Source: Candidatus Tayloriibacteriota bacterium
GTDB taxonomy: Bacteria; Patescibacteriota; Minisyncoccia; Phycocordibacterales; PALSA-1337
Length of the DNA: 64,000 bases
Assembly: GCA_052034805.1 (NCBI GenBank)
Contig: JBPOID010000003.1
Span: 3,502 to 67,501 of the forward strand
Direction of reading: 5' to 3'
A program made the position numbers and the translations under genes. Shown piece after piece: positions 8,250-64,000 of the stretch (positions are counted from its first letter, which is position 1; every line of letters begins with the position of its first letter). The notes under the pieces are model-generated. The model saw only the letters and a list, made by a program, of their open reading frames with translations, was not told where the DNA came from and ran no database searches.

Positions 8250-9358
8250 AAGTAAAGATATTTACGATCGCAAATATAAGACCAGATTTTATAGAAATTC
8301 AATATGAATCGATTAAAAAGTTTCTAAAAGATAAAGACTTTGAATTTATTGTCTACAATAATTCATTTAACAATAAAAAAAGATATGAGTTAATTGAAAA
8401 TATATGTAGAAAATTGAAAATAGAAAATATAAAAGTAAATCATTATAGAGATAATAAAAATGATGCTAGTTTAATAGTAGCTGATAGTTTAAATTATATT
8501 TGGAATAAATATCTAAAATATGAAAAAGATATTTTATTGTATATCGATTCAGATATGTTCTTGATAAAAGATACATCAGTGGAAGAATTAATGAGAAATT
8601 ATGATTTCGCTTTTATATCGAACTATCGTGGCAAAGACTTTGAAATAAAGTATCCATGGACTGGTTTTATGATATTTAATATGAATACATTACCCAATCC
8701 AATAGAATTAAAATGGGATACAGGAATAATATTTGGGAATAGAGTTGATGTGGGTGGACTCAATCATTATTATCTATCAAAATATGAAAATAGGATAAGA
8801 ATATTAAATCTGGAGATGTGGACATTAAATGATATAGATTATCGTGATAATAATATTAAAAATATAAAAGGTAGTATAAATGGTAATGCTCAATTATCTT
8901 TATCTATTGATAAAGATAATAAATTGATTGAATTTAATATAAATGATATACATTTATCAAGAAATAGATTATTCCCTTATCAGAAAGAAAATGAAAAATA
9001 TGGAGAAATAGTGAAAAATAATTATATAGAATTCGAAAAATATATTAAAGATAATAATCTAAATTTCCCTAAGCCTATATATATAGATTTGATAAAGACT
9101 TATGAATCAAAATTTAATGATTGTTTTATATTACATTATAAATCAGGCAGTAATTGGTTAAACTTTTCAACAAAAGAATATAATCATAAAAAAACTGAGG
9201 CATTAGTTTATCTTATGAAAAAATTAGGTGTAAATATTACAAAAAACAATATTTATGATGATAATGATCTTTATACTGATGATAAAAAATATATTTATTC
9301 AAGTAAAATGAAATTATATAATTTATATAGAAGAATAATAAATAAAATAATAAAATGA
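8246..9358 (+). CDS. Hypothetical protein, possible GT-A-fold glycosyltransferase (DSD motif)
   Basis: Long ORF co-directional with and overlapping neighbours by 4 nt. Contains YIDSDMF, resembling a DxD motif. No confident family assignment. Confidence 0.4.
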   Translation: MKVKIFTIANIRPDFIEIQYESIKKFLKDKDFEFIVYNNSFNNKKRYELIENICRKLKIENIKVNHYRDNKNDASLIVADSLNYIWNKYLKYEKDILLYIDSDMFLIKDTSVEELMRNYDFAFISNYRGKDFEIKYPWTGFMIFNMNTLPNPIELKWDTGIIFGNRVDVGGLNHYYLSKYENRIRILNLEMWTLNDIDYRDNNIKNIKGSINGNAQLSLSIDKDNKLIEFNINDIHLSRNRLFPYQKENEKYGEIVKNNYIEFEKYIKDNNLNFPKPIYIDLIKTYESKFNDCFILHYKSGSNWLNFSTKEYNHKKTEALVYLMKKLGVNITKNNIYDDNDLYTDDKKYIYSSKMKLYNLYRRIINKIIK

Positions 9359-10152
9359 ATAAAACATACGATATATTTTCATTTTTCAATGAATTAGATA
9401 TGTTAGAAATAAGATTGAATATCTTAGATAAATTTGTAGATTATTTCGTAATAGTAGAAGCAACAGAAACATTTACAGGTCAATCAAAGCCTCTTTATTA
9501 TAAAGAAAACAAAGAGAGATTTTCTAAATGGAATCATAAAATAATACATTATATAGTAGATGATTATCCAAATGATAAAAATATATGCGAATTAGCAAAT
9601 AAAAGTCCTAATGTACCTAAAGATGGACCAATACATTGGCATAGAGAATTTTATCAAAAAGAAAGTATAAAAAAAGCACTTATAGGATTAAATGATGAGG
9701 ATGTATGTTTTGTAGGAGATGTAGATGAGATATGGAATTATAATAAAGATTATCACCTATTAGATAATGATATATTTAAATTGAGATTAGAAGTATATTC
9801 ATACTATTTCAACAATCATTCAAATGAAGAATTTGCTGGAACAATAGTTACAAAATATAAAAATATAAAAAATAATTGCTTAAATCATCTCAGAACTCAT
9901 AATTTAAAATATTTAGACAATGGTGGTTGGCATTTCACTAATATTGGTGGATTAGAACAAATAAAGAAAAAATTAAATGCTTCTTATACGGAAGATAGTT
10001 ATAATACAGAAGATGTAAGAAAAAATCTAGAAAAAAGATTGAATGAAAATAAGGATTATATGGGAAGAAAATTCAAATTCACAATAAGCGAAAAAAACCT
10101 ACCTGTGTATTTATTAGAAAATAAAGAAAAGTATAGTAAACTCTTTAAATAG
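9355..10152 (+). CDS. GT17-like (GnT-III-like) glycosyltransferase
   Basis: N-terminus DIFSFFNELDMLEIRLNIL...VIVEATETFTGQSKPLYY matches the conserved start of Glyco_transf_17 family proteins. Confidence 0.6.
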   Translation: MNKTYDIFSFFNELDMLEIRLNILDKFVDYFVIVEATETFTGQSKPLYYKENKERFSKWNHKIIHYIVDDYPNDKNICELANKSPNVPKDGPIHWHREFYQKESIKKALIGLNDEDVCFVGDVDEIWNYNKDYHLLDNDIFKLRLEVYSYYFNNHSNEEFAGTIVTKYKNIKNNCLNHLRTHNLKYLDNGGWHFTNIGGLEQIKKKLNASYTEDSYNTEDVRKNLEKRLNENKDYMGRKFKFTISEKNLPVYLLENKEKYSKLFK

Positions 10153-46023: not shown

Positions 46024-46099
46024 TGGAGCCGATGATCGGGATCGAACCGATGGCCTCCCCATTACCAATGGGGTGCTCTACCAACCGAGCTACATCGGC
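46024..46099 (-). tRNA. tRNA-Thr (anticodon GGT), CCA encoded
   Basis: Reverse complement GCCGATGTAGCTCGGTTGGTAGAGCACCCCATTGGTAATGGGGAGGCCATCGGTTCGATCCCGATCATCGGCTCCA: 7-bp acceptor, D arm GCTC/GAGC, anticodon loop TTGGTAA, T arm ATCGG-TTCGATC-CCGAT. Confidence 0.85.
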
Positions 46100-46152
46100 G
46101 ATATAAACCTTATATTACAATAAAATATAAAAATTAACTATCTTTTAATATC

Positions 46153-47472
46153 CTATTTAGGCAATTCAACTGTAACTGTTGTACCAACATTTAATTCTGA
46201 AGAAAGAAAGATTGTACCTCCATGAAGTTCTATTATTTTCTTTGATATATATAGACCTATACCACTTTCATTTGGTTCTATAGATATAGCATTCTTCGAT
46301 CTATGAAGTCTATAGAAAACATAAGGCAAATCACCTGAAGCAATACCTATTCCGGTATCTCTAACAGTAATTCTTACAAAAGAAGGTATTTCTTCTACTG
46401 TAATAGTTACATGACCTTTCGGAGAATACTTTATTGCATTATCTATTATATTTGCAAGAGCAGGTCTCATTTTCTCTCTATCTGCATTTATAAGGAAAGA
46501 GCTAGGAGCAATGAAAGAAACTTTAACTGATTTCTTTATTATAAGGAAATTTAATTCAGCAATGATAGATTGTATTATTCCGACAATATCTACTTTTTCT
46601 ATATATATTTTTACCGAATTCTCTGTATCTTCTGCGGTTTTTAGCATTTGATTCACAACTTCTATAGCACCTTTTATTCTATCCATACCAGCATCTATAA
46701 GAGATATAGTCTCTTGTGGTAGGGATTGTGAGGACTTTATCATTTCTAATGTCCATTTTACAGCTGATAAAGGTGTACGTAATTGATGTTGTGCAACGCT
46801 CAAGAAATCCCCTTTCAGGCTATCTATTTGTACAGTTTCTGCTAATTTCTTTGCAGTCTCTTCATTTCTATATTTATGATACATTATTTCTATAATCAAA
46901 CTATATACAAAATAAGATATAACACCTATAAGAAATGTTTCTATTATATGTTTAGCAATAAGTGCAGAATCAATACTCGCAGATGGAGTGAAAACTATCA
47001 TAAAAGCAAAAGCTATAGTTATGACCATGCCCATTATTCTGGTATATATTCTATCCAAGAATACAGAAGTAGATATTATAGGAAAAAATAAAGTAAATAT
47101 AAAAGAACTATTAGTACCGCCTGTTATATATATTACATATAAGAAAAATAATACATAAGCATATATAGCAAGTACAAATAATGCATTCTTTTTCAAGAAT
47201 TCATTTAATGTAACTAATATAAAATACACTATACCTATCGCAAATAAAGCCATAACAGCATTATCTATATTCTCATTAAGCCATGTAAAGTATTGAGGGA
47301 GAAAATAAACAAAAAAACCAACAACAACTGGTATAAGTGCCCCCATCAAGCCTAGAGCATAATAATATTTCTTGAGTTGTAGGGCCGATAATTCTTGTGA
47401 GCTTTTATTAACTTTATTATCTGTATTTTTTACTATCTCATTATTTATATTATTTTTATTTAAAGGTTCCAT
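46153..47472 (-). CDS. Sensor histidine kinase with ~6 N-terminal TM helices
   Basis: H-box SVAQHQLRTPLSAV; ATP-binding NIIDNAIKYS, DTGIGI, GIGLYISKKIIELHGG. Confidence 0.85.
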   Translation of the reverse strand: MEPLNKNNINNEIVKNTDNKVNKSSQELSALQLKKYYYALGLMGALIPVVVGFFVYFLPQYFTWLNENIDNAVMALFAIGIVYFILVTLNEFLKKNALFVLAIYAYVLFFLYVIYITGGTNSSFIFTLFFPIISTSVFLDRIYTRIMGMVITIAFAFMIVFTPSASIDSALIAKHIIETFLIGVISYFVYSLIIEIMYHKYRNEETAKKLAETVQIDSLKGDFLSVAQHQLRTPLSAVKWTLEMIKSSQSLPQETISLIDAGMDRIKGAIEVVNQMLKTAEDTENSVKIYIEKVDIVGIIQSIIAELNFLIIKKSVKVSFIAPSSFLINADREKMRPALANIIDNAIKYSPKGHVTITVEEIPSFVRITVRDTGIGIASGDLPYVFYRLHRSKNAISIEPNESGIGLYISKKIIELHGGTIFLSSELNVGTTVTVELPK

Positions 47473-47500
47473 TTATATTTTTACTAAAATTTGTACTATG

Positions 47501-47575
47501 CGCGGTCGACGGGACTCGAACCCGCAACCTCTCCCGTGACAGGGGAGTGCTCTAACCAAATTGAGCTACGACCGC
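47501..47575 (-). tRNA. tRNA-Asp (anticodon GTC)
   Basis: Reverse complement GCGGTCGTAGCTCAATTTGGTTAGAGCACTCCCCTGTCACGGGAGAGGTTGCGGGTTCGAGTCCCGTCGACCGCG; anticodon loop CTGTCAC. Confidence 0.85.
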
Positions 47576-47659
47576 ATAATAAAACTAATAAAATAAGCTC
47601 ATGAACAGAGCAATATCTTATTTTTGTTATTATACACGATTCTATGAATTTTTAAAGGG

Positions 47660-47733
47660 TGTCGGCGGAAGGGATCGAACCTTCGACCTTGGGCTTATGA
47701 GTCCCACGCTCTAGCCAACTGAGCTACGCCGAC
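47660..47733 (-). tRNA. tRNA with CAT anticodon (Met/fMet, or Ile2 if lysidinylated)
   Basis: Reverse complement GTCGGCGTAGCTCAGTTGGCTAGAGCGTGGGACTCATAAGCCCAAGGTCGAAGGTTCGATCCCTTCCGCCGACA; anticodon loop CTCATAA. Three consecutive G-C pairs in the anticodon stem hint at an initiator type. Confidence 0.75.
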
Positions 47734-47755
47734 ATATGAATTGTTGAAATAATTG

Positions 47756-47827
<72 letters not shown>

Positions 47828-54610: not shown

Positions 54611-55764
54611 TATAATTCAATGTCTCTAATCTCTCTACCTATAGTTCTTTCAGCAGAATTTATATCTTTCTTTAATAAGGATTTATCTTCTATATCTTCT
54701 CGGAGAATATCAAAGGATTTATGTACTATATCTTCTACTTTATGCATCTCTCTTTTATATTTTCCATTACTATTTGTCTTTCTTTTTTCATCTTTATCTT
54801 CTGTATATATATGTATTATTAAATAAACAATAATAAGTATTAGTATTAACAATATAATCCATATTTGCCATGGAATATCAGAGAAAAAATTACCTATATT
54901 TATAATTATTTTATTTGATTCATTACTATGAGTACCATCACTCTTTATCATAATAGCTGTTACTGTATATTCACCAGACTTTAGAGAATTAGGTACTGGT
55001 AAATTGAAATTTCCATTATCTTCAGCTATATCAGTTATAAATATCTTAGTACCTTTTTCAGAGATAAAAGTTATTAATACTTGTGCTTTAGAATAATCAG
55101 ATATTCCTATAATAGATGGCTGATTATACTTTATTCCATATACTATCTCTGGCGACTTTAGAGTTAAAGGTTTCTCTATCACAGGTGCTGGTACTACTTC
55201 TGGAGTATTTTCTTTTATCTCTTTAATTGGTTCCGGCTTTACACTGGCTTCTTTTATAGAAAACATTGCCCCTGATAGATTGCCAGTTATGTCTGTGCCT
55301 TCTCCATCATTTGCAAGTATTTGACCAGATTGAAAAGAAATATTAGCTGAACCGATCTTTAATGGTCTTATAACTATAGTAAGAATATTACCGATTGAAC
55401 CACCTTTATATCCACCGAGTGCAACTCCTTCGAAACGGACTGTACCGTTTGATCTAGAAAGAGTTGGTTCTGTTACCCAAAAATTCAAAGCGGAACCAGA
55501 TTTTGAAACAGATTCAATAGAAAATAATGATGTTGGAATATTTATAACAGAAGATACAGCATTAAAAGCTATATCACTAGTAACATTTACCTTTAATATT
55601 ATAGAACTACCAACTTCATAACTACCAGAAGATGGACTGATGGATAGTGTCGCAGCAAAAACTGTATTAGAAAATAATGGTACAAAAAAGAATATTAAAG
55701 ATAACAATACTAGCGGATAAATATTGATTTTATTTTCTTTTTTGAAAAAATCACAAATGTACAT
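54610..55764 (-). CDS. Cell-surface cohesin-like module protein (paralog 2) with C-terminal TM anchor and ~70-aa charged cytoplasmic tail
   Basis: Signal peptide, LSISPSSGSYEVGSSIILKVNVTSD...ILTIVIRPLKIGSANISFQSGQILANDGEGTD, TM helix IWIILLILILIIVYLIIHIY. Confidence 0.55.
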   Translation of the reverse strand: MYICDFFKKENKINIYPLVLLSLIFFFVPLFSNTVFAATLSISPSSGSYEVGSSIILKVNVTSDIAFNAVSSVINIPTSLFSIESVSKSGSALNFWVTEPTLSRSNGTVRFEGVALGGYKGGSIGNILTIVIRPLKIGSANISFQSGQILANDGEGTDITGNLSGAMFSIKEASVKPEPIKEIKENTPEVVPAPVIEKPLTLKSPEIVYGIKYNQPSIIGISDYSKAQVLITFISEKGTKIFITDIAEDNGNFNLPVPNSLKSGEYTVTAIMIKSDGTHSNESNKIIINIGNFFSDIPWQIWIILLILILIIVYLIIHIYTEDKDEKRKTNSNGKYKREMHKVEDIVHKSFDILREDIEDKSLLKKDINSAERTIGREIRDIEL

Positions 55765-56600
55765 ATTACTAAAATTATAGCAAGAATTATGTAATGTTCA
55801 TACCATGGAATATTCTTCGGATTAACCATAACTACTCTTATATTGTTTGATTTATCAACAGCTTTTACATAAATCTTGGTTCTTAATTCTTGATCCTTCA
55901 AAAGATATGGGCTTGTAGCCTCTATACAATCAGATTCAATACCCTCACAAATCTCATAATGATCAATACCAGAAATCTTATCTTGAGTATTAAATACTAT
56001 AAAATATTTATCATCAAAAATATTAGGGTCTTTATTTATTTCTGGAACAAATGTTTCCGGCAAATCTTTATCTAAAATATTATATTCACTAGGTATATAA
56101 TCCTTATTAGTTTTATTAAAAATATTTAATTGTAAATTCTTTATTTTGGCTTTTATTTCTGTACCCTTTCCATCATTACGGAATAATTGTGATTTGATTA
56201 CCTTTAGAGATGTATTACCAGACTTCTTTATCTCAAAAATAATCCTTATAATATTTCCCTTATCTCCATTATATCCACCAGGAGTTATACCAGAAAGATA
56301 TATTTCACCATCTTTTAATATATTTGGTTTATCTATCCAAATATTAACTATAGAATCGCCTGTGTATATATTTTTAAAATCAAGTATATCGCTAGGATAA
56401 GAAATGGTACTTGCTATAGTGTTTATAGATTCATTTTGTGTATTCAAATATAAATCTACAGATATAATATCTCCAACTCTTAAAATATCATTAGAAGGAT
56501 TAACAATACTTAATTCAGCAGCATAAACAGTATTACTAAATAGTAATACTGTAATTAAAAATAAAATTGTAATAATTATTTTCTTCATTATCCTGTCCAA
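55710..56600 (-). CDS. Cell-surface cohesin-like module protein (paralog 3) with C-terminal TM anchor
   Basis: Signal peptide MKKIIITILFLITVLLFSNTVYA. LSIVNPSNDILRVGDIISVDLYLNT...IIRIIFEIKKSGNTSLKVIKSQLFRNDGKGTE. Shares SGIDHYE...VKAVDKSNNIR with paralog 1. TM HYIILAIILVICTFVIF. Overlaps the downstream paralog by 55 nt in a different frame. Confidence 0.55.
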   Translation of the reverse strand: MDRIMKKIIITILFLITVLLFSNTVYAAELSIVNPSNDILRVGDIISVDLYLNTQNESINTIASTISYPSDILDFKNIYTGDSIVNIWIDKPNILKDGEIYLSGITPGGYNGDKGNIIRIIFEIKKSGNTSLKVIKSQLFRNDGKGTEIKAKIKNLQLNIFNKTNKDYIPSEYNILDKDLPETFVPEINKDPNIFDDKYFIVFNTQDKISGIDHYEICEGIESDCIEATSPYLLKDQELRTKIYVKAVDKSNNIRVVMVNPKNIPWYEHYIILAIILVICTFVIFSKKKIKSIFIR

Positions 56601-57955
56601 TTAAATGCCATAATACTGAAATCTATAAGATCTATTTTTGCATCACCATTCAATCTTTCTTTTTCTATAAGCTTAAATGATTCACTGAGTATATGTTTAT
56701 ACCAAAAAGCAGCAATAGAGAAGTCTACAAGATTAACTCTGCCATCTTTATTCAAATCTCCTCTCAAAATTTTATTTGCCAAAGAGACTGCGGCAACATT
56801 TTTATTACCGACAATAAAACCTAAAGAATTACTGAAAGGACTTATTTCACCATTGATTGCTGCTTTTAATTTTGTAGAATGTTGACCCATTTCGAGAGGA
56901 GTAGTATCAAAATTATATAAATATATACCATTCTTATCAGAATTAGTTTTAGAGAAAATAGTTTCATTAGAATTAACTTGAATAGTTAAATCTCCATTGC
57001 CAACAGATTGTCCAAATATGGCTATATTATCACCTCTCTTAACTTCACTTTTATCTAAAGAAATCGTAGGAGTTATGAATATACCACCAACACTAGTTAT
57101 AACACCTCTTGTTACAAATATCTGAAATGTAAAAGGACTAGATTTCACATTTCTATTATCTTCACCGTAAACACCAAAAATATAACTACCTGGTGAAAGA
57201 TTGGTTATTCTTGCTGTAAAATTACTATCGGGACCAGCAATTGTATTAAGTATTAATTGTCCATCTTTTAGAAATCCTACCTTACTTAAAGGATAAGCTC
57301 TCCCAGAAAGGACAACTCCTGTATCTCCAGAATCAGTATCACCACCCCCACCTCCTCCTCCGCCCCCGCCACCACCTCCCCCTCCTCCGCCACCACCTCC
57401 ATTATTATTGTTTGAAGATACTGGTGTAGAAGATATTTGACTTGAAGAAGCTATAGCGTTACCAAAAATATCTTTAACAACTATAACGAAATAATAAGTA
57501 GTATTATTAGTCAAACCAGAAATACTAGAAGATGTGACATTACCGAGAGAAGTATAAGTATATGGACCTCCTGACACAGTCGATCTAGCTATATTATAGC
57601 CAGATGGAGTCCAGCCTAAAAATCCAGATGAATTTGTCCATGATAAACTAATAGAAGAATCGCCTGGTGTAGCAGAAACCACAGGTGAAGATACGAATGG
57701 ATAGAATAATGAACCCGCATTCAATTTATAATCTGTTGCACTACTAGTACCAATACTCATTTGCGATAGACTACTCCATAATTGAAAACTCGTAGAAGTA
57801 GCGTAATTAGCGGAAAACATAACTGGATCTACAACTTGATAAGATCCTGATGTGTATTCATCAGCATTAGATACAAAGACAATAGAAAGGAATAGGAATA
57901 ACGCCAGTGTTAAAGCTCTTAGATATCTAATGCCTTTATATACATCTTTTGTCAT
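56588..57955 (-). CDS. Secreted dockerin-containing protein: signal peptide, Fn3-like domain, 22-Gly linker, Ig-like domain, C-terminal type-I dockerin
   Basis: Signal peptide ...LFLFLSIVFVSNA. Fn3-like SATPGDSSISLSWTNSSGFLGWTPSGYNIARS...TTYYFVIVVKD, G22 run. C-terminal GDLNKDGRVNLVDFSIAAFWYKHIL...LNGDAKIDLIDFSIMAFNW has two Ca-binding DxNxDGxVNxxD-type dockerin repeats. Confidence 0.7.
   Translation of the reverse strand: MTKDVYKGIRYLRALTLALFLFLSIVFVSNADEYTSGSYQVVDPVMFSANYATSTSFQLWSSLSQMSIGTSSATDYKLNAGSLFYPFVSSPVVSATPGDSSISLSWTNSSGFLGWTPSGYNIARSTVSGGPYTYTSLGNVTSSSISGLTNNTTYYFVIVVKDIFGNAIASSSQISSTPVSSNNNNGGGGGGGGGGGGGGGGGGGGDTDSGDTGVVLSGRAYPLSKVGFLKDGQLILNTIAGPDSNFTARITNLSPGSYIFGVYGEDNRNVKSSPFTFQIFVTRGVITSVGGIFITPTISLDKSEVKRGDNIAIFGQSVGNGDLTIQVNSNETIFSKTNSDKNGIYLYNFDTTPLEMGQHSTKLKAAINGEISPFSNSLGFIVGNKNVAAVSLANKILRGDLNKDGRVNLVDFSIAAFWYKHILSESFKLIEKERLNGDAKIDLIDFSIMAFNWTG
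57341..57410 (-). repeat. 70-nt near-100% G+C (CCN)n tract encoding a 22-residue poly-glycine linker
   Basis: ACCACCCCCACCTCCTCCTCCGCCCCCGCCACCACCTCCCCCTCCTCCGCCACCACCTCC in a ~28% GC genome; mixed GGN codons. Confidence 0.8.
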
Positions 57956-57979: not shown

Positions 57980-58363
57980 TTATTGGCCGATCTTTAGAGT
58001 TGCAACTTCAACTATTATATTAGACTTATCATCATATATAAGTGCTGTCTTGGATACAGGATAGACTATAAGATAATCACCTACCTTTGCTTTAACGAAA
58101 AATGGATTATTAACAAAAGGTTTAGTATCAGAAATCATAGCCACTACTGGTTTCTCATTTGTTGGTAAAGCTATTAATTTACCAACTTTATCTATAAGCA
58201 TAGTTACTTTTGCTTCATTTTCTTTATCTTGATTCTGTTTTAGAGAAACGGTTTTACTGTAGAAATAAAATAAAGATACTGATGCAATAATTATAAGTAT
58301 GATTATCACTAGAATTGGTTTAGTGAGAAACTTTGTTTTTGTATTGTTTGTATTAGGTTCCAT
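57980..58363 (-). CDS. Small N-terminally membrane-anchored protein, paralog A of a tandem triplet
   Basis: 127 aa. TM ILVIIILIIIASVSLFYF, then conserved LIALPTNEKPVVAMISDTKPFVNNPFFVKAKVGDYLIVYP...EVATL. Confidence 0.55.
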   Translation of the reverse strand: MEPNTNNTKTKFLTKPILVIIILIIIASVSLFYFYSKTVSLKQNQDKENEAKVTMLIDKVGKLIALPTNEKPVVAMISDTKPFVNNPFFVKAKVGDYLIVYPVSKTALIYDDKSNIIVEVATLKIGQ

Positions 58364-58373
58364 ATTTTTTTAA

Positions 58374-58751
58374 TTATTTTGAAGAATTTTTATTTGTTGT
58401 TTCCAAATTTATCTTGGCTACTTCCAGAATCTTATTTGCTACTGGATCATAAAGATATATTTTGCCAGTATTTTTATAAAAGACTACATTATCACCATTT
58501 TTTGCTTTTGCGAAAAATGGGTCCTTATTCAACTTTTCTATATCATTTACAACCATTATAACAGGTGTTTCATCTTCTGGTAGAATTATCAATTTACCTA
58601 ATCTAGAAACCAAATCCTCAGTTTGTTGTTCTACTGAACTCTGTGGATTATCTTTAATGTTTCCTGCTTTCTTGTAAAAGTTAAACGCAAAGCCACTTAT
58701 GATAATAAACACAACTAAAAGTAAAAAGAAAATTTTATTTCTGTAATTCAT
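58374..58751 (-). CDS. Small N-terminally membrane-anchored protein, paralog B
   Basis: 125 aa; LIILPEDETPVIMVVNDIEKLNKDPFFAKAKNGDNVVFY...EVAKI aligns with paralogs A and C. Confidence 0.55.
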   Translation of the reverse strand: MNYRNKIFFLLLVVFIIISGFAFNFYKKAGNIKDNPQSSVEQQTEDLVSRLGKLIILPEDETPVIMVVNDIEKLNKDPFFAKAKNGDNVVFYKNTGKIYLYDPVANKILEVAKINLETTNKNSSK

Positions 58752-58816
58752 AATGACAATTATAAACTATTGATAGTTATTAAAGCAAATCTATTATCCA
58801 CAAAATAGCCAGTAAA

Positions 58817-59221
58817 TTAGCGATTTGTTGTGGAATTTATATCTGTTGTTTTATTTGCAGAAACAGAAGATATTTCTATAATTTTCTTTATGGAAGGCCT
58901 CCATAATATAGCCTTTTGAGATGTTTGATATATAAGAACCTTATCCCCCACTTGTGCATTAGCAAAGAATTTCTGATCTTTTAATTTTGATGGGTCTGAT
59001 ACTGTCGCCAAAGTTGGTGTTTCATCTTTTGGTAATACTATAAATACACCTATATCTTTAACTATTTGATTTGTTTCTCTAGAAATAGCTTCACCAGGAT
59101 TCTCTAGATTACGTATTTTATTTATAAAAATAATATTAGATACTATAAGACCAATAATTATTATAATAAGACTTATAATAAAAACTTTTATTCTTGATGG
59201 TAATAAATTAAATGTTTTCAT
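58817..59221 (-). CDS. Small N-terminally membrane-anchored protein, paralog C
   Basis: 134 aa; VFIVLPKDETPTLATVSDPSKLKDQKFFANAQVGDKVLIYQ...EISSV. Confidence 0.55.
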   Translation of the reverse strand: MKTFNLLPSRIKVFIISLIIIIIGLIVSNIIFINKIRNLENPGEAISRETNQIVKDIGVFIVLPKDETPTLATVSDPSKLKDQKFFANAQVGDKVLIYQTSQKAILWRPSIKKIIEISSVSANKTTDINSTTNR

Positions 59222-59245: not shown

Positions 59246-62200
59246 CTATTGATTAGAGCTTGTATCAGAAGTTGCTGGTACGGTAACTACCGCTTCTGGT
59301 ACTGGAACAGAAGCAGATGTATCAGGAGTTATAGATACTGGAGCTACTTCTGTATTTGTCTGTACTGAATTATTTGTATTAGATATTGTATTGGTATTTG
59401 TATTAACATTATTATCTGTATTTATTACAGTATTTGTCTCTGTCTGATTTTCAGTATTAGGTACTGATGTATTTACTTCTGTATTATTAGAAGAACCAGA
59501 AGATTGACTTGTATTAGGCGTTATAACTGGAGTTGAAGTTGGAGTAGATGTTGAAATAGTTGTAGTTATAGTATTTAATATTGGAGAAACTATTTCTGTA
59601 TTTCCAATATAAGGAGTTGTTGTTGATATTGTTGGTGTTGTTATTATTGGATTTACTATAACTGTACTTGTTGCTGTTGAAGTAGCATTTAATGTATTTG
59701 CTTCTGTATTTACCATATCAGAATCTTTTGAAGTAAATAACTTTGCATTCTTCACAGCGAATGCTGTCCAACTAAATTCTATATCAACAGGTGCTGGTCT
59801 ATTTAGAATAATTGTGAATCCTTTTACACTTCTCTTTGTTATTAGAGATCTTATATCCTTATCAAATATTATATCTTCAATAGATTCTGTAGAAGTAGCT
59901 TCGTCTACACTAATCGAAGCATTAACGATAGGAGTATCTATATATTCTCTATCAAAGACAATATCGACTTTCTTTGCACCCTTCTTTATAAGAGCATTGC
60001 CTGCAGTATCGACGGTAAAGTATGGTCTTCCAAAGAAGATAGTATCAGAAAGTATAGATACCATAGTTGAAGTGGCACCTATAGAATCAACTAACAATCC
60101 TCCAGAGAATAGAGCTTGTTTGCTTATATTTATAGAATCAAATGCTGCAATATTTGCTGTTATAGAACCCTTGAATAAAGCATTTCCAATATTATCAAAT
60201 GACAACAATACAGTCTTTGTAGATGTAGCTATTGTAGGCAATGTAGATGTAGCTTCTGTAGAAGTTGATGAGTCTGTATTTATATCTACAACTGAAGCTA
60301 ATATATTCTTGCTCAAAGAGAATATACCATCATTTCCTAATTCCATAACTATAGAACCATTCTTTATAATAGATGTTTCAAGTGTATTTGTCTTTATGTT
60401 CTTAGCAGATATAGTTATACCTTCTACTGATTCTGATTTTAATATTCTAGTTATAACATTTGAACTTAGAACATCTGATACTGCTGTAATTTTATCTGCA
60501 AATACTTCAGATCTAGCAGAAGCCATGGTATCTCTCTGTTTCTTTACATTTGAAAGATAAGATAAGAGATCTGCTTGATGTGAATCATATATTCCAGAAG
60601 CAAATCCTGCTAATTCATTTGTAGAAGTAGCTATGTCTTGAGGATTAATATCTGAATTAATATTTGAATTAGTATTTGAATCTAGAAGAGATTTCAATTG
60701 ATCACCATTCAAAGCTAGAGAATCATCAGCGGAATCTCCTAGATAATCAACTAGATTTACGAACATTGTTATAGTTGTACATTTTCTATTTGGTATTGCA
60801 ATTCCACCCGCTGGACAATCGACTAGATTTGCAGTGTCAATACCAGATAATGCTTTTCCTATAACATGACCAGCTAAAGTTGCCTTCATAGCATAACCAG
60901 GAATACTTGATGGAGTAAGTTTATCACCTTGTCTTATCATTCCATTTTCTGTTGTAACCTTTACAGGTACACGACCTATAAGAGCTATTGGATAAGAATT
61001 CTCTGTATATGCACCAGCTACGAATCCAGGATCAGTTGAAACAACTCCCATTACATCTCCTTGATATTGATATGTCGTTTTCTTTACACCATGATTATTC
61101 TGTGGATCTATAGCTACAACATCTCCGAAATCTAATTCTTCTTGTGATGTATATCTTTCTGCAAGATCGGCACCAGAAGTATTGAATGTTCCTCCAGTCT
61201 GAGCAAATATATCTCCAGCAGAACTTACGCGGAACATAGATAATCCATCTGATTGCAAATCAATAAGATCTTTATCTTTTGTAACCTTGTATTCATACAA
61301 TACTGGAGTTATAACAGGTCTCTGAGGATAAGCCATAGCAGAACCACCATTGTTATTCCATGTATCAGTATATATACCTCCATAAGATGGGAATGATCTT
61401 CGGAAATTAAAGTTTATAGAAAGCCAAGTATCATTTGGTCCTGGATTTATAAGTCCACCCGATTTTGCAATTTCTCTTGTTGTAGATGTTGACAATGCAG
61501 CTTGAGTAGGAGCGGTTCTAACCTCTGCAGATATACCTCCTAGAGCAGTCATACCGACATTTGACTTCCATACCAAGGTAGAATTTGAATCAAGTTTTGT
61601 ACCCACAGGAGAAAGGTCAAATTGTTCAGATTTATATATACCACTAGGTACCCAACCAGCATCATATGTTTGAACAAGACTAGTTGCAGAAGTTGTAGCA
61701 CCTCCCAATATAATTACGAATTTTCCATCAGATCTTTGGAATGCAACTCCTCCAGAGTTAGCAGTAGCAGAGTTTGCAAGAGTAGGTCCAGCTACAAACG
61801 ATCCTATAGTTGATTGTGGTCCCAAAGCAGTAAGAGCACCAGCCTGTTCTATATAAATATTTGTAGTGTTCTGACCAGCTAGAGCGGCAGTACCAGCACC
61901 TTCTACTATGAGCCATGAACCATCTGGACGAGGTAATGCATAACCACCCAATCCTACTCCATTACTTGATGTAAATGCAGGACCAGTTGTTGTTATTTGG
62001 TTTTGAATAGGATTGTAAACACCAGTACCAGTTGAACCTGCACAAGAAGCAGCTGTAGCACCTCCACGAACTATAATCCATTGTCCATCAGATCTTTGGA
62101 ATGCAAATGCTCCTGGTCCAGTACCTCCAGTGTTTGTAGGAGCTCCAGTAAATGTGAAATCCATAGTATAAGGATCGAAGTTATTCGTAATAGTGTTAGG

Positions 62201-64000
62201 AGTAGGACAAGTTTTACCTCGAGGATATGTAGGCATACCAGGAATAAATAGATATGTACCATTTGGACGAGGCACCCATAGAGATCCAGGACCAACAGCA
62301 GCAAATGTTGCAGCAGTTGTCAGAGGACGAGGTCCAACTGTCATAGTATTATTCACAGGATCATATATAGAAGAATTACTTGTAAGACCTCCATGCATTA
62401 TAAGTACACGTCCATTAGGAAGTGGTATAGCAGAAGCACCGATACCAGCACCAGTTGTACCAGATACACTGGCTAAGTTCGGACCATCTATAAATGTATT
62501 TGCTACTGGATCATATATATTTGTTGTAGAAGTCGCAGCGAAACTACCTTCACCAAGAATAATTAAGAATTTGCCATCTGGCCTCTTGAATGCAAATCCT
62601 CCTGTACCTATAGGTGCTGTAGGAGAAACTGTATTTAGAGTTGTTGTACCAGTTGCTTCATCATATATTTGAGAGTTTGGAATAGATGAACTTGCAGATA
62701 TAATTACGAATTTTCCATCAGGCCTCTTCATAACTATAGTAGTTGAAGCTGTAGGAACATAAAGTCTTGGGGCATTCTGGAATGAGCCATTGTAGAAATT
62801 AGGATTTGTAGCATTTATAGTAGAGCCATATCCAACACCAGCAGCCAAAGCCAATGCATTTGCACGATTCTTATCATTTGTAATATTTATAGCAGCAGGA
62901 CCAGAATCTGGAGCAGTTGAAGAAGATACGGCATTTCCAAAATCAAATTGAGTTCTATGAAGTGATGTACTATTATCTACAACAATTGATGATATAGTTG
63001 GATCAGCATTCACACGACGATATCTGGTTATACCTCCCTTTCTTAATCCCCATTCTTGATCAAGGAATCTCGGTAATTCACGTTGGAATGTAAATTTGAA
63101 TTGAATAAGATTGTCAGCTGTTGTAGTTGCACGTATAAGATCTCCACTATTTCCTATTGGTCTATATTCTGCAGAAGAACAGGAAGATGGACTTGTAGCT
63201 GTTCTTACATAAACTTTAATAGTTCCTTCACTATTTGTAGTCCAATTCAAAGTAGAATCAGGAGAAAGATTTGTACTACTTATACATTCACTTTCATAAT
63301 ATGCATCTTGTTGATTGGCACGATTAGTACCTGTAATAAAGTTCATATCATATATATCCATGGTGTTCTTGAATCCACCATTTATAACAGCATATCTACC
63401 ATCAGGTAACATAAATGCAGTTAGACCATAACCACCAGTATTAGATAGAGTCAAACTAGTATTAGAGAATTGTGGTGCAAGATAATTACTTGTACCAGGT
63501 ATACCAGATCCAGCATCTATAACATTTATCATATTTCCTACTGTGGTACTTGCTGAAAGTAATAGATAATTACCATCTTGTCTCCATATAGATTGAGCCC
63601 CATCAGAAAGTATAGATGTAGGTCCAACACCTAGATCACCAGAGAATCCTCCTGTTGAACCAGTTGTTGTTCCGACAGGTTTGTAAATAAATGATTGAGA
63701 AGCAGGACCTGGTAATGTAAGGAATGTACCATCTTGTCTTCTTATAGAGAATGCTCCATTAGCTATTCTTACTGGCGTAGTAGGTCCTGTAAGCATAGTA
63801 CCTGTAATAATGTTTGAGGCAACTGTGTTTCCAGAATAAGGATTATATACATATGTTGTATTAGTACCTCCTTGATAAATAAGGAAAGTACCATCATCTC
63901 TTTGTAATGCATGTGTACCAGCACCCCAAGTACCAGTTATACCTATACTTACATTTGTATATCCTGCATTTGTTGCAGCAGAAGGGTTATATATACCCCA
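59246..64000 (-). CDS. Giant (>1580 aa) Kelch-type beta-propeller repeat surface protein with Thr/Ser/Asn-rich C-terminal tail; 5' end beyond window edge
   Basis: At least 12 repeats of ~45-50 aa with YDP/YNP...N and R.DG..L(I/V)..GG hallmarks (e.g. FAFQRSDGQWIIVRGG, NIYDPVANTF, SSIYDPVNNTM). The frame stays open upstream of the first Met (63796) to position 64000 and continues in Kelch-like sequence (LQRDDGTFLIYQGG). Last ~170 aa are TSTPTSTPVITPNTSQSS...NTNTNTISNTNN low complexity. Confidence 0.75.
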   Translation of the reverse strand, partial: WGIYNPSAATNAGYTNVSIGITGTWGAGTHALQRDDGTFLIYQGGTNTTYVYNPYSGNTVASNIITGTMLTGPTTPVRIANGAFSIRRQDGTFLTLPGPASQSFIYKPVGTTTGSTGGFSGDLGVGPTSILSDGAQSIWRQDGNYLLLSASTTVGNMINVIDAGSGIPGTSNYLAPQFSNTSLTLSNTGGYGLTAFMLPDGRYAVINGGFKNTMDIYDMNFITGTNRANQQDAYYESECISSTNLSPDSTLNWTTNSEGTIKVYVRTATSPSSCSSAEYRPIGNSGDLIRATTTADNLIQFKFTFQRELPRFLDQEWGLRKGGITRYRRVNADPTISSIVVDNSTSLHRTQFDFGNAVSSSTAPDSGPAAINITNDKNRANALALAAGVGYGSTINATNPNFYNGSFQNAPRLYVPTASTTIVMKRPDGKFVIISASSSIPNSQIYDEATGTTTLNTVSPTAPIGTGGFAFKRPDGKFLIILGEGSFAATSTTNIYDPVANTFIDGPNLASVSGTTGAGIGASAIPLPNGRVLIMHGGLTSNSSIYDPVNNTMTVGPRPLTTAATFAAVGPGSLWVPRPNGTYLFIPGMPTYPRGKTCPTPNTITNNFDPYTMDFTFTGAPTNTGGTGPGAFAFQRSDGQWIIVRGGATAASCAGSTGTGVYNPIQNQITTTGPAFTSSNGVGLGGYALPRPDGSWLIVEGAGTAALAGQNTTNIYIEQAGALTALGPQSTIGSFVAGPTLANSATANSGGVAFQRSDGKFVIILGGATTSATSLVQTYDAGWVPSGIYKSEQFDLSPVGTKLDSNSTLVWKSNVGMTALGGISAEVRTAPTQAALSTSTTREIAKSGGLINPGPNDTWLSINFNFRRSFPSYGGIYTDTWNNNGGSAMAYPQRPVITPVLYEYKVTKDKDLIDLQSDGLSMFRVSSAGDIFAQTGGTFNTSGADLAERYTSQEELDFGDVVAIDPQNNHGVKKTTYQYQGDVMGVVSTDPGFVAGAYTENSYPIALIGRVPVKVTTENGMIRQGDKLTPSSIPGYAMKATLAGHVIGKALSGIDTANLVDCPAGGIAIPNRKCTTITMFVNLVDYLGDSADDSLALNGDQLKSLLDSNTNSNINSDINPQDIATSTNELAGFASGIYDSHQADLLSYLSNVKKQRDTMASARSEVFADKITAVSDVLSSNVITRILKSESVEGITISAKNIKTNTLETSIIKNGSIVMELGNDGIFSLSKNILASVVDINTDSSTSTEATSTLPTIATSTKTVLLSFDNIGNALFKGSITANIAAFDSINISKQALFSGGLLVDSIGATSTMVSILSDTIFFGRPYFTVDTAGNALIKKGAKKVDIVFDREYIDTPIVNASISVDEATSTESIEDIIFDKDIRSLITKRSVKGFTIILNRPAPVDIEFSWTAFAVKNAKLFTSKDSDMVNTEANTLNATSTATSTVIVNPIITTPTISTTTPYIGNTEIVSPILNTITTTISTSTPTSTPVITPNTSQSSGSSNNTEVNTSVPNTENQTETNTVINTDNNVNTNTNTISNTNNSVQTNTEVAPVSITPDTSASVPVPEAVVTVPATSDTSSNQ

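Follow-up and report, generated by a model that had tools for sequence, protein, structure and literature searches.

The gene cluster analysed here has its nearest described counterparts in the cohesin-dockerin surface assemblies (cellulosome scaffoldins and non-cellulosomal modules), with which it shares the principle of plug-in subunits on a surface scaffold: it too encodes a secreted dockerin protein together with two to three cell-anchored cohesin proteins. Cellulosomal scaffoldins are anchored by SLH domains or sortase motifs. In the present cluster, by contrast, anchoring is by C-terminal transmembrane (TM) helices and the partner is a giant fibre-like protein. The cluster also encodes small membrane proteins, the subject of this study, in which neither cohesin (PF00963) nor dockerin (PF00404) was matched. 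Among the cluster proteins that were scanned, none showed a carbohydrate-active enzyme domain.

Two further systems invite comparison with the small proteins themselves. Solo LytR_C proteins, such as VirR (Rv0431) of M. tuberculosis, and the LCP-LytR_C ligases likewise combine small size with an N-terminal membrane segment and an extracytoplasmic α/β domain; LytR_C acts outside the membrane at the nascent cell wall, and the solo LytR_C envelope proteins act at the wall via protein-protein interaction (PMC11832169). Unlike these, the proteins described here have no LytR_C domain, and the short forms of their family are tied to a giant/dockerin/cohesin operon rather than to LCP ligases. The SAF / CpaB (RcpC) proteins of Tad pili resemble the family in having an N-terminal TM segment, a small β-rich domain and a G-D-x-V-like motif, but the small genes have no Tad or pilus genes in their neighbourhood. 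In the literature on cohesin/dockerin or LytR_C in Patescibacteria (CPR) we found no description of the cluster.

A large family of small membrane proteins

The window (the whole 64,000-nucleotide stretch of DNA that was analysed) contains three adjacent ORFs for which the initial annotation had claimed a common architecture, and this was borne out: the proteins, of 134, 125 and 127 aa, are all encoded on the minus strand (Table 1), and each carries near its N-terminus a 19-aa strongly hydrophobic segment (mean Kyte-Doolittle 2.7-3.1). In a full-length alignment of the three, identity to the first sequence is 28-32% and 20 columns are invariant. The motif proposed for their shared domain was also right, with L-P-x2-E-x-P ... 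F-F-x2-A-x2-G being invariant across 61 homologs. The type B protein is identical to a database protein (P0001).

Table 1. Features of the small-gene cluster and its neighbours (positions in the window)
Feature	Position	Strand	Remarks
Giant surface protein	59246..64000	-	5'-truncated at window edge; ten β-propeller-blade-like repeats
Conserved C-terminal module of giant (residues ~860-1400)	59597..61219	-	Ends with H-lectin-like domain
Small paralog type A, 134 aa	58817..59221	-	First position in multi-copy loci
Type A TM segment (residues 15-33)	59123-59179	-	
Type A conserved domain (residues ~47-123)	58853-59083	-	Followed by S/T/N-rich tail
Small paralog type B, 125 aa	58374..58751	-	Nearest type to most single-copy genes
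Type B TM segment (residues 7-25)	58677-58733	-	
Type B conserved domain (residues ~41-118)	58398-58631	-	
Small paralog type C, 127 aa	57980..58363	-	Nearly always alongside another copy
Type C TM segment (residues 17-35)	58259-58315	-	
Type C conserved domain (residues 50-127)	57983-58216	-	C-terminus directly after domain ('...LKIGQ')
455-aa secreted protein	56588..57955	-	Signal peptide, fn3-like domain, poly-Gly linker, Ig-like region, C-terminal dockerin
Cohesin-like type I membrane protein	55710..56600	-	Signal peptide and C-terminal TM
Cohesin-like type I membrane protein, 384 aa	54610..55764	-	Faint Ig-like (Big_13) region, C-terminal TM
Cohesin-domain type I membrane protein, 420 aa	53348..54610	-	PF00963, C-terminal TM

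The three genes are real, ancient paralogs belonging to a very large unnamed family of the ultra-small Patescibacteria. At E <= 1e-3 the family comprises 6,758 cluster representatives (50% identity clusters), with 5,807 matching at E <= 1e-10, and the species-representative genomes yielded 415 family loci, mostly labelled Patescibacteria. ORFs in related loci match the family HMM with E-values of 1e-34 to 1e-56. A TM segment was present in 108 of the 109 members examined; it is followed by a juxtamembrane motif, Y-F-Y-x-K ... [N/D]-P (N-Q instead of N-P in the 127-aa copy), then by the conserved head domain and, typically, by a T/P/S-rich tail. The fetched lineages show strong conservation of the head, with a mean column identity of 67% in the A3 alignment, and within the cluster it belongs to the better-conserved proteins. 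The family merits a Pfam or InterPro domain entry.

The genes had been introduced as a triplet, which is accurate for this locus but does not describe the family, where one copy per locus is usual. Among 82 fetched loci, which include two records of one locus (L001/L002), 65 have one copy, 10 have two, five have three and two have four. The triplet is an old, lineage-specific and order-conserved expansion (A-B-C) of a usually single-copy gene. The A-B-C order is preserved in distant genomes, and identity within types (0.58-0.65) exceeds that between them (0.47-0.53), which together suggest that the paralogs are non-redundant subunits. A recent tandem duplication was rejected, given that domain identity between the copies is 26-37% and that their order is kept across distant genomes.

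The statement that the proteins fall into no known family holds, there being no Pfam, NCBIfam, PHROGs, PADLOC or PDB-sequence match and no significant Foldseek match. Pfam and NCBIfam scans of the three proteins, and a Pfam scan of 61 members, returned TM-driven noise (DUF4330, PspB, SoxE_N, DUF4131 etc.), and a sequence-profile search of the PDB retrieved designed helical repeat proteins alone, at E > 1. A relationship to SAF/CpaB, raised as a possibility at the outset, found no backing: SAF and RcpC (which we take to be PF08666 and PF16976) are absent from the matches of the three proteins at E <= 10 and from the 25 families most frequently matched by the 61 members at E <= 1, and the FlgA model has no match in the 61 members at E <= 1. 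Type IV pilins and pseudopilins were rejected on the grounds that neither the N-termini nor the 61-sequence alignment contain a G/F-x-x-x-E motif; the Pfam scan gave no pilin families, TadE appearing as a single weak match in one of the 61 members. Homology of the family domain to LytR_C (PF13399) was likewise rejected: hhalign against the LytR_C of fused members gave a probability of 3%, and the LytR_C profile did not match the window proteins, being present in other members only as an extra C-terminal domain. Phage origin was rejected as well, with no relative in IMG/VR contigs and no PHROGs match, and a PADLOC scan of the small proteins for anti-phage defence gave no match.

To examine the fold, AlphaFold models of the type C protein were built as monomers, full-length and domain-only. 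The domain model (pLDDT 89.9, pTM 0.76) predicts that the ~75-aa domain consists of one helix packed on a four-stranded antiparallel sheet, in the order α1-β1-(short helices)-β2-β3-β4. The head is predicted to lie about 8-10 residues from the membrane surface, and the juxtamembrane helix is broken by the conserved N-P, where model confidence is lower. Foldseek searches (full-length and domain-only models against the PDB, domain-only against BFVD) gave no match at E < 0.03 and none that was globally coherent.

Several features bear on topology. Net charge favours an N-in orientation in 60 members versus 27, and one member combines a cleavable-looking signal peptide with two copies of the domain. 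In the fetched loci 10 of 108 family ORFs (about 10%) have LytR_C fused at the C-terminus; in database members Pfam recognises this domain with E-values as low as 8.6e-16. The charge bias, the signal-peptide member and the LytR_C fusions support a predicted location of the head outside the cytoplasm.

A conserved operon around the small genes

The initial annotation placed the small genes between a dockerin protein and a giant Kelch protein; both neighbours stand, the former downstream and the latter upstream, as a giant repeat protein for which Pfam does not call Kelch. The downstream 455-aa protein has dockerin motifs, DLNKDGRVNLVD / LNGDAKIDLID, that are canonical Ca-loop motifs, while its fn3 and dockerin profile matches are weak. 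Beyond it lie three type I membrane proteins. The first is 296 aa long when read from a TTG start and 292 aa in the calls of public assemblies, and the 420-aa protein matches PF00963 with 33.7 bits, above the gathering threshold. From the giant to the 455-aa gene the gaps are 24, 65, 10 and 24 nt, and no terminator-like site was found on the minus strand between these genes; the small genes and their flanking genes thus appear to be co-transcribed.

This layout is the modal one among 81 loci, with the conserved gene order giant fibre-like protein, one to four small proteins, dockerin/fn3 protein, and two to three C-terminally anchored cohesin-like proteins. The 455-aa family is the most constant neighbour of short family members, standing at +1 in 48/81 loci; of the 41 loci with this neighbour, 38 have its start -10 to +147 nt from the end of the last small gene. 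Cohesin-like genes occupy +2..+4 in 47/81 loci, and giant homologs are found at -1/-2 in 41/81; a link of the small genes to the surface genes around them is supported. A gene of at least 600 aa stands at -1/-2 in 64% of loci, as against 1.3% of background genes. The position flanked by giant and dockerin genes recurs across many Patescibacteria lineages, labelled Paceibacteria/Parcubacteria, Magasanik-, Uhr-, Nomura-, Kaiser-, Yanofsky- and Komeilibacteria, and the family is conserved in related genomes, the lack of which had been named at the outset as a ground for refutation.

The 455-aa neighbour is absent from 19/60 short-form loci, and some members adjoin unrelated metabolic genes, as with G6PD and a carbamoyltransferase in L058. 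A one-to-one pairing with the cohesin proteins was rejected, the small-protein and cohesin-gene copy numbers being only weakly correlated (rho 0.40, p 0.02, phylogenetically uncorrected). In the fetched set a dockerin neighbour was found for 0/8 LytR_C-fused forms and for 41/60 short forms (Fisher p = 3e-4), consistent with two alternative ways of connecting the head to the envelope. The fused forms adjoin a sugar epimerase and a PMT_2-like glycosyltransferase; Saccharibacteria are among the carriers of this form.

The giant is at least 1,584 aa long as readable here and at least 2,043 aa on another record (L083), and its homologs have 2,143-3,028 aa. Its ten blade-like repeats span residues 12-712 of the listed ORF. 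The N-terminal ectodomain of the giants is variable, being a β-propeller in the window giant, and among about 40 loci the C-terminal ~550 residues alone are in common. No TM segment follows this C-terminal module, and the giant homologs lack a C-terminal TM anchor; a conserved but unanchored module is thus found beside a conserved membrane protein. Complete giants have a hydrophobic N-terminus, which could itself be a membrane anchor, and in that case the C-terminal module would be distal rather than membrane-proximal. The start of the module ('GADLAExY..GDVV....GVVS..PG..LG') weakly resembles the phage φ29 pre-neck appendage protein gp12 (Peptidase_G2 intramolecular chaperone), aligning with residues 1-53 of PDB chain 3gqh_A, a C-terminal gp12 fragment ('DFAEYFE..GYLV....IGVISETAGFVLG'), with weak statistics (E = 0.15 and 0.0098). 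Peptidase_G2 was matched by Pfam in 1/28 giant homologs, and PHROGs gave no match.

Possible roles of the small proteins

On the basis of synteny, topology and the LytR_C fusion, we see roughly an even chance that the small proteins serve this surface system as adaptor subunits, outside the cytoplasm and close to the membrane. The family would then be a core component of a conserved surface-appendage operon, and its members would be bitopic, with a short cytoplasmic N-terminus, one TM helix, the juxtamembrane motif, a compact extracytoplasmic domain and the usual tail. The binding partner of the conserved head would be a conserved component of the system, with the C-terminal module of the giant and the 455-aa protein as the most plausible candidates, and the small proteins would tether or organise this partner at the membrane, during or after Sec export. 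In multi-copy lineages the A, B and C paralogs may form a hetero-oligomer. We propose the physical interaction, the anchoring or assembly role and the hetero-oligomerisation as parts of one model.

Some observations sit less easily with an adaptor. The cohesin-dockerin pair already accounts for how the 455-aa protein is anchored, with no need for the small proteins, the synteny is not universal, and small-protein copy number follows that of the cohesin genes weakly.

Less probable, yet the foremost of the alternatives, is a general cell-wall or envelope-biogenesis factor that works like solo LytR_C proteins and whose head would bind peptidoglycan, a lipid-linked precursor or a wall-synthesis enzyme; its position beside surface-protein genes would then, with the same limited likelihood, point to a general envelope neighbourhood and not to a part in the appendage. 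Besides the LytR_C fusions and the sugar epimerase and glycosyltransferase beside them, this would be in keeping with a Beta-lactamase2-family serine hydrolase, a peptidoglycan-type enzyme (E = 5.8e-34), that recurs in the upstream flank (18 loci, 14 members at -1), and with a family spread far wider than any single operon layout. The strong conservation of the head would also fit a ligand that is an invariant part of the envelope, such as peptidoglycan or a lipid-linked precursor, rather than a cluster protein. However, the small genes occupy a highly specific slot, closely spaced from the giant on one side and the 455-aa gene on the other, the domain has neither detectable similarity to LytR_C nor a Pfam wall-binding domain match, and no murein-synthesis genes were seen in the examined flanks.

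A more speculative reading, which we regard as improbable, treats the head's β2-β4 meander as a homolog of a single blade of the giant's propeller, inserting into or completing the propeller in trans and so tethering the giant, or oligomerising as a propeller-like ring. Locally, Foldseek matched the domain model best to single blades of WD40, Kelch, olfactomedin and PROPPIN propellers, which superpose with an rmsd of ~1.1 Å over 29 residues and a probability of up to 0.8, but with an E-value of about 0.6. Like a Kelch/WD40 blade, the head has a three-strand antiparallel meander with a '...Y-D-P-x-x-N...' turn, and its motif 'GDkVLiY...kA.LYDP..Nk' parallels the blade consensus of the giant, 'DGtYLIiaGG...niYDPvtNt'; in contrast to such a blade it is stand-alone and membrane-anchored, with an extra N-terminal helix and a first strand drawn from a different place in the sequence. 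In hhalign the domain scored 18.4 against the blade profile (P = 0.0012), above all 600 column-shuffled controls, and a 366-sequence profile gave P = 0.001 in an unchanged register. However, the probability is 20-21% over 22-23 columns, unrelated β-rich neighbour families score 12-17.4, little under the blade's 18.4, and the family HMM gives 0.3 bits on the giant; the resemblance falls short of accepted significance. Moreover, the hypothesis was formed after inspecting the sequences, and many members adjoin giants with non-propeller N-terminal parts. Its fullest version, a free-standing anchored blade derived from the giant's own repeat that completes or docks to the propeller in trans, with A, B and C supplying one blade each, is similarly a long shot. 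If true, blade docking would explain how multi-thousand-residue adhesins are fastened to a membrane in these bacteria without the use of sortase, SLH or lipid anchors.

We also consider it improbable that the small proteins are export or folding helpers, that is, membrane-tethered holdases for the giant or the 455-aa protein at its exit from the Sec translocon, standing outside the final structure. No more than about 10 residues separate the predicted head from the membrane, the small genes sit between those of two large secreted proteins with which they are apparently co-transcribed, and the giants' own chaperone-like C-terminal module suggests demanding folding; yet the small proteins resemble none of the known extracytoplasmic chaperones (PrsA, SurA, PpiC, thioredoxin and others), and the ordered, maintained A/B/C paralogs suggest a structural, stoichiometric role over a catalytic one.

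Divisome-type bitopic proteins (FtsB/FtsL/DivIC-like), which are alike in size and N-terminal TM topology and of which FtsL/FtsB are often not recognisable in Patescibacteria, were rejected and are very improbable indeed, since no DivIC/FtsB/FtsL model matches, the conserved N-P interrupts the helix so that there is no long coiled coil, and the neighbours are surface proteins with no division or cell-wall-cluster genes nearby; just as improbable are non-coding chance ORFs, which the thousands of conserved homologs exclude.

Implications for Patescibacteria

Much of bacterial diversity falls within the Patescibacteria, the majority of which are believed to be attached to host cells. To our knowledge, how they build and anchor surface structures is largely obscure apart from type IV pili. 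Most of the 106 CPR-enriched families of Méheust et al. 2019 are poorly annotated, and 76 have at least one TM helix (PMC6744442). The present analysis makes one poorly annotated CPR TM family concrete, with thousands of members, a confident model and a fixed place in a conserved operon in which a phage-fibre-like giant accompanies a cohesin-dockerin pair. As a compact, highly conserved target that is predicted to be extracellular, the head domain could serve as a marker of or handle on the apparatus, and the outcome is a testable hypothesis on how giant surface proteins may be tethered in Patescibacteria.

Three ordered paralogs in one probable transcription unit

The three small genes lie exactly where the initial annotation had placed them and in the same direction (Table), within an AT-rich window (GC 22-41%). 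The common architecture proposed for them was confirmed by end-to-end alignment: 20 columns are invariant, and the first sequence is matched at 28-32% identity. Each protein has a single strongly hydrophobic 19-residue stretch near its N-terminus. Because the gaps among the three genes and their flanking genes are short (24, 65, 10 and 24 nt) and no terminator-like site was found between them on the minus strand, the small genes appear to be co-transcribed with the upstream gene for a giant repeat protein and the downstream gene for a 455-aa protein.

Table. Features of the window and gene families recurring around the small genes; signed positions are gene steps from the small gene(s)
Feature	Position	Strand	Remarks
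Type A small ORF, 134 aa	58817-59221	-	
Type B small ORF, 125 aa	58374-58751	-	
Type C small ORF, 127 aa	57980-58363	-	
Conserved C-terminal module of giant	59597-61219	-	alignment A4 of giant homologs
Giant frame, listed ATG (63796) to window edge	63796-64000	-	open, with more blade repeats
Poly-Gly run of 455-aa protein	~57335-57405	-	~23 consecutive glycines, residues ~185-207
296-aa cohesin-like ORF	55710-56600	-	TTG start; overlaps 455-aa gene end at 56588-56600
Four tRNA genes	46024-47827	-	Thr-GGT, Asp-GTC, two Met-CAT
Glycan-modification island	235-32490		about half of the window
455-aa family	+1	always same	48/81 loci
Cohesin-like family	+2 to +4		47/81 loci
Giant-protein family	-1 or -2		41/81 loci
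Beta-lactamase2-family serine hydrolase, ~328-329 aa (PF13354, E = 5.8e-34)	upstream flank, 14/19 members at -1	either	18/81 loci

The tandem triplet holds for the window but is not the family norm. Among 82 fetched loci, which include two records of one locus (L001/L002), 65 carry one copy, ten carry two, five carry three and two carry four. In three-copy loci of distant genomes the first, second and third copies are usually nearest to types A, B and C, respectively, and two-copy loci mostly carry B then C; single-copy genes are nearest to B in 37 cases, to A in 25 and only rarely to C (three cases). Type C stops right after the domain, ending in '...NIGQ'. Identity is higher within types (0.58-0.65) than between them (0.47-0.53), which, together with the order kept in distant genomes, rules out recent duplication as the origin of the window triplet. 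Since the paralogs are maintained and ordered, these results suggest that A, B and C are non-redundant subunits, possibly forming a hetero-oligomer.

A large Patescibacteria family with a conserved head domain

The initial annotation could not assign the small proteins to a family, and indeed no curated library recognises them. Pfam and NCBIfam returned only sub-threshold matches driven by the TM helix, PHROGs and PADLOC models gave none, a profile search of PDB sequences found nothing relevant, and scanning 61 diverse members one by one against Pfam yielded no consistent weak match. Tests for membership in SAF/CpaB, LytR_C, pilin, FtsB/DivIC, cohesin/dockerin, phage and defence families were all negative. 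As a database entry, the domain family is new.

A word-indexed search returned 297 relatives, all of 116-163 aa, unnamed or 'hypothetical', and from Patescibacteria wherever a label is present. Of 1.84 billion cluster representatives searched exhaustively with the family HMM, 6,758 match at E <= 1e-3 and 5,807 still do so at the stricter E <= 1e-10; a one-genome-per-species scan found 415 family loci. The core motif reads L-P-x2-E-x-P-T-x-A-T-V-x-D ... F-F-A-x-A-x-x-G-D-x-V-L-x-Y ... A-x-L-Y-D-P and is preceded by a conserved juxtamembrane Y-F-Y-x-K, with [N/D]-P about eight residues on. Loci L003, L007, L019, L033, L043, L053, L054, L058 and L061 (GC 0.35 to 0.61) were deposited as 'Nitrospira sp.' or 'uncultured Gammaproteobacteria'; these are likely mis-binned or automatically mislabelled Patescibacteria contigs, and L003, L007, L019 and L061 also carry the 455-aa neighbour.

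AlphaFold2 with a 61-sequence alignment reached a pLDDT of 83.9, and 89.9 (pTM 0.76) for the domain alone. In the predicted order, the TM helix is followed by a hinge at the N-P motif, where confidence is lower, then by helix α1 and finally by an antiparallel sheet of four strands, built from β1, two short helical turns and a β2-β3-β4 meander. Foldseek searches returned nothing significant, either from the PDB (best E = 0.77 with the full model and 0.56 with the domain) or from the viral structures of BFVD, where the best hit has E = 0.035 and an rmsd of 9.6 Å.

Conserved neighbours: dockerin, cohesin-like and giant proteins

Genomic context is the strongest evidence. De novo clustering of the genes around the small genes at 81 independent loci (Table) showed co-occurrence with cohesin and dockerin genes, and the location between the dockerin protein and the giant proved to be part of the modal layout, which is the window's own: giant; 134, 125 and 127 aa; 455 aa; 296, 384 and 420 aa. 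Where the flanking DNA suffices, 41 loci have the 455-aa homolog, and in 38 of these its start falls -10 to +147 nt from the last small gene. A gene of at least 600 aa occupies -1/-2 in 64% of loci; for background genes of those loci the figure is 1.3%. The Beta-lactamase2-family hydrolase, which may be a peptidoglycan-remodelling partner, lies on either strand (for example L001 5561-6553 and L016 8887-9876) and between the giant and small genes in L001/L002; from the window it is absent.

In the 455-aa protein a signal peptide precedes an fn3-like domain, a poly-Gly linker follows, and the C-terminus is a dockerin in which both canonical Ca-binding loops can be recognised, although Pfam scores it slightly under the dockerin threshold. 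The glycine run links the fn3-like and Ig-like parts and produces spurious PDB matches to engineered (G4S)n linkers (scFv, single-chain MHC constructs). The 296-, 384- and 420-aa proteins each have a signal peptide, a cohesin-like N-terminal domain and a C-terminal TM anchor, with PF00963 above threshold in the 420-aa protein. The true start of the 296-aa ORF is uncertain, because public assemblies give 292 aa from an ATG 12 nt downstream of the window's TTG (L083, another assembly with this cluster, 8791-9669).

The giant's reading frame is open to the window edge and the gene encodes at least 2,043 aa in L083 (2-6133), so the listed length of 1516 aa is a truncation artefact; full-length homologs have 2,143-3,028 aa. 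The window giant contains ten blade-like repeats. Only residues ~850-1400 are conserved, across ~40 loci, while N-terminal ectodomains vary. Complete homologs begin with a hydrophobic segment, and none has a C-terminal TM segment. The conserved module opens with 'GADLAExY...GDVV...GVVS..PG..LG', and its start aligns weakly (E = 0.15) with residues 1-53 of the preneck appendage protein chain 3gqh_A, the C-terminal chaperone fragment released by autocleavage from gp12 of phage φ29. Peptidase_G2 matches one of 28 giant homologs, and H_lectin matches weakly near the C-terminus in nine of 28. As a lead, the giants resemble proteins of fibres or appendages and carry a putative chaperone-type module at the C-terminus; the gp12-fragment alignment, the Peptidase_G2 match and the H-lectin-like end suggest a self-cleaving, possibly trimeric, phage-tailspike-type fibre encoded in a bacterial chromosome.

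Elsewhere in the window, the dense glycan-modification island includes, among the ORFs scanned, a GT2, DUF5672 and FkbM-methyltransferase fusion, a second GT2-methyltransferase fusion, a carbamoyltransferase and a GtrA-domain protein, as would fit a heavily glycosylated surface. Downstream, the surface cluster is followed by the tRNA genes in what appears to be ordinary chromosomal context, with genes for a histidine kinase, an amidase-family protein (PF01425) and a pyruvate kinase close by.

LytR_C fusions, topology and proposed role

Family members of 215-265 aa add a C-terminal LytR_C domain (PF13399, E-values from 8.6e-16 to near threshold in database members), found on 10 of the 108 family ORFs of the fetched loci. 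LytR_C is an extracytoplasmic, wall-associated interaction domain that in mycobacteria mediates VirR self-association and LCP ligase binding at nascent wall sites (PMC11832169). The family domain itself is not a LytR_C relative (hhalign probability 3%). Fused and short architectures partition by gene context: the 455-aa neighbour accompanies 41 of 60 members with the short architecture but none of eight fused ones (Fisher p = 3e-4), and fused forms are still flanked by envelope genes (fn3/CarboxypepD_reg, Laminin_G_3/Big_7 and YadA-head/Peptidase_S74 proteins, a sugar epimerase and a PMT_2-like glycosyltransferase). In L058 a carbamoyltransferase lies directly upstream of the fused member. P0191, a 243-aa protein found among the cluster representatives, has a cleavable-looking signal peptide in place of the TM anchor, and two tandem family domains. 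From the LytR_C fusions, the T/P/A/S-rich tails of short forms and a moderate positive-inside bias (60 versus 27 members), we infer that the head domain is extracytoplasmic.

The small proteins would then be type II (N-in, C-out) membrane proteins whose conserved head, within ~10 residues of the membrane, acts as a membrane-proximal adaptor of the surface system, tethering or organising the giant's C-terminal module or the 455-aa protein; where a lineage lacks the operon partner, the same head would be coupled to the wall through LytR_C instead. We give this reading an about even chance. Architecture, conservation, synteny, paralog order and fusions are observed, while the anchoring or assembly role first suggested is inferred, as are topology, binding and hetero-oligomerisation. 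A general envelope or wall factor is rather unlikely, and an export or folding helper, which current data do not separate from an adaptor, is improbable.

Similarly improbable is that the head is a membrane-anchored blade of the kind repeated in the giant's β-propeller. The domain model's best local Foldseek matches are single WD40, Kelch, olfactomedin and PROPPIN propeller blades, and the blade consensus of the giant, 'DGtYLIiaGG...niYDPvtNt', has a parallel in 'GDkVLiY...A.LYDP..Nk' of the family. The hhalign score of 18.4 (P = 0.0012) tops all 600 column-shuffled controls and stays the same with a 366-sequence profile, but the probability is only ~20%, raw scores of 12-17.4 are reached by unrelated β-rich families of these loci, the giant gets 0.3 bits from the family HMM, and the idea arose after inspection of the sequences. 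A divisome protein or a non-gene is highly improbable.

As membrane-proximal adaptors, the small proteins would most resemble small envelope adaptors such as solo LytR_C proteins. Cohesin and dockerin are a known interaction pair, present here in an undescribed setting; we found no paper on the giant/small-protein/dockerin/cohesin cluster in the literature on cohesin/dockerin or LytR_C in CPR. We rate the cluster as a non-cellulosomal cohesin-dockerin surface assembly whose membrane subunit defines a family not described before. Large, lineage-defining and without a structural assignment, this family is relevant to the way in which CPR bacteria construct their surfaces.
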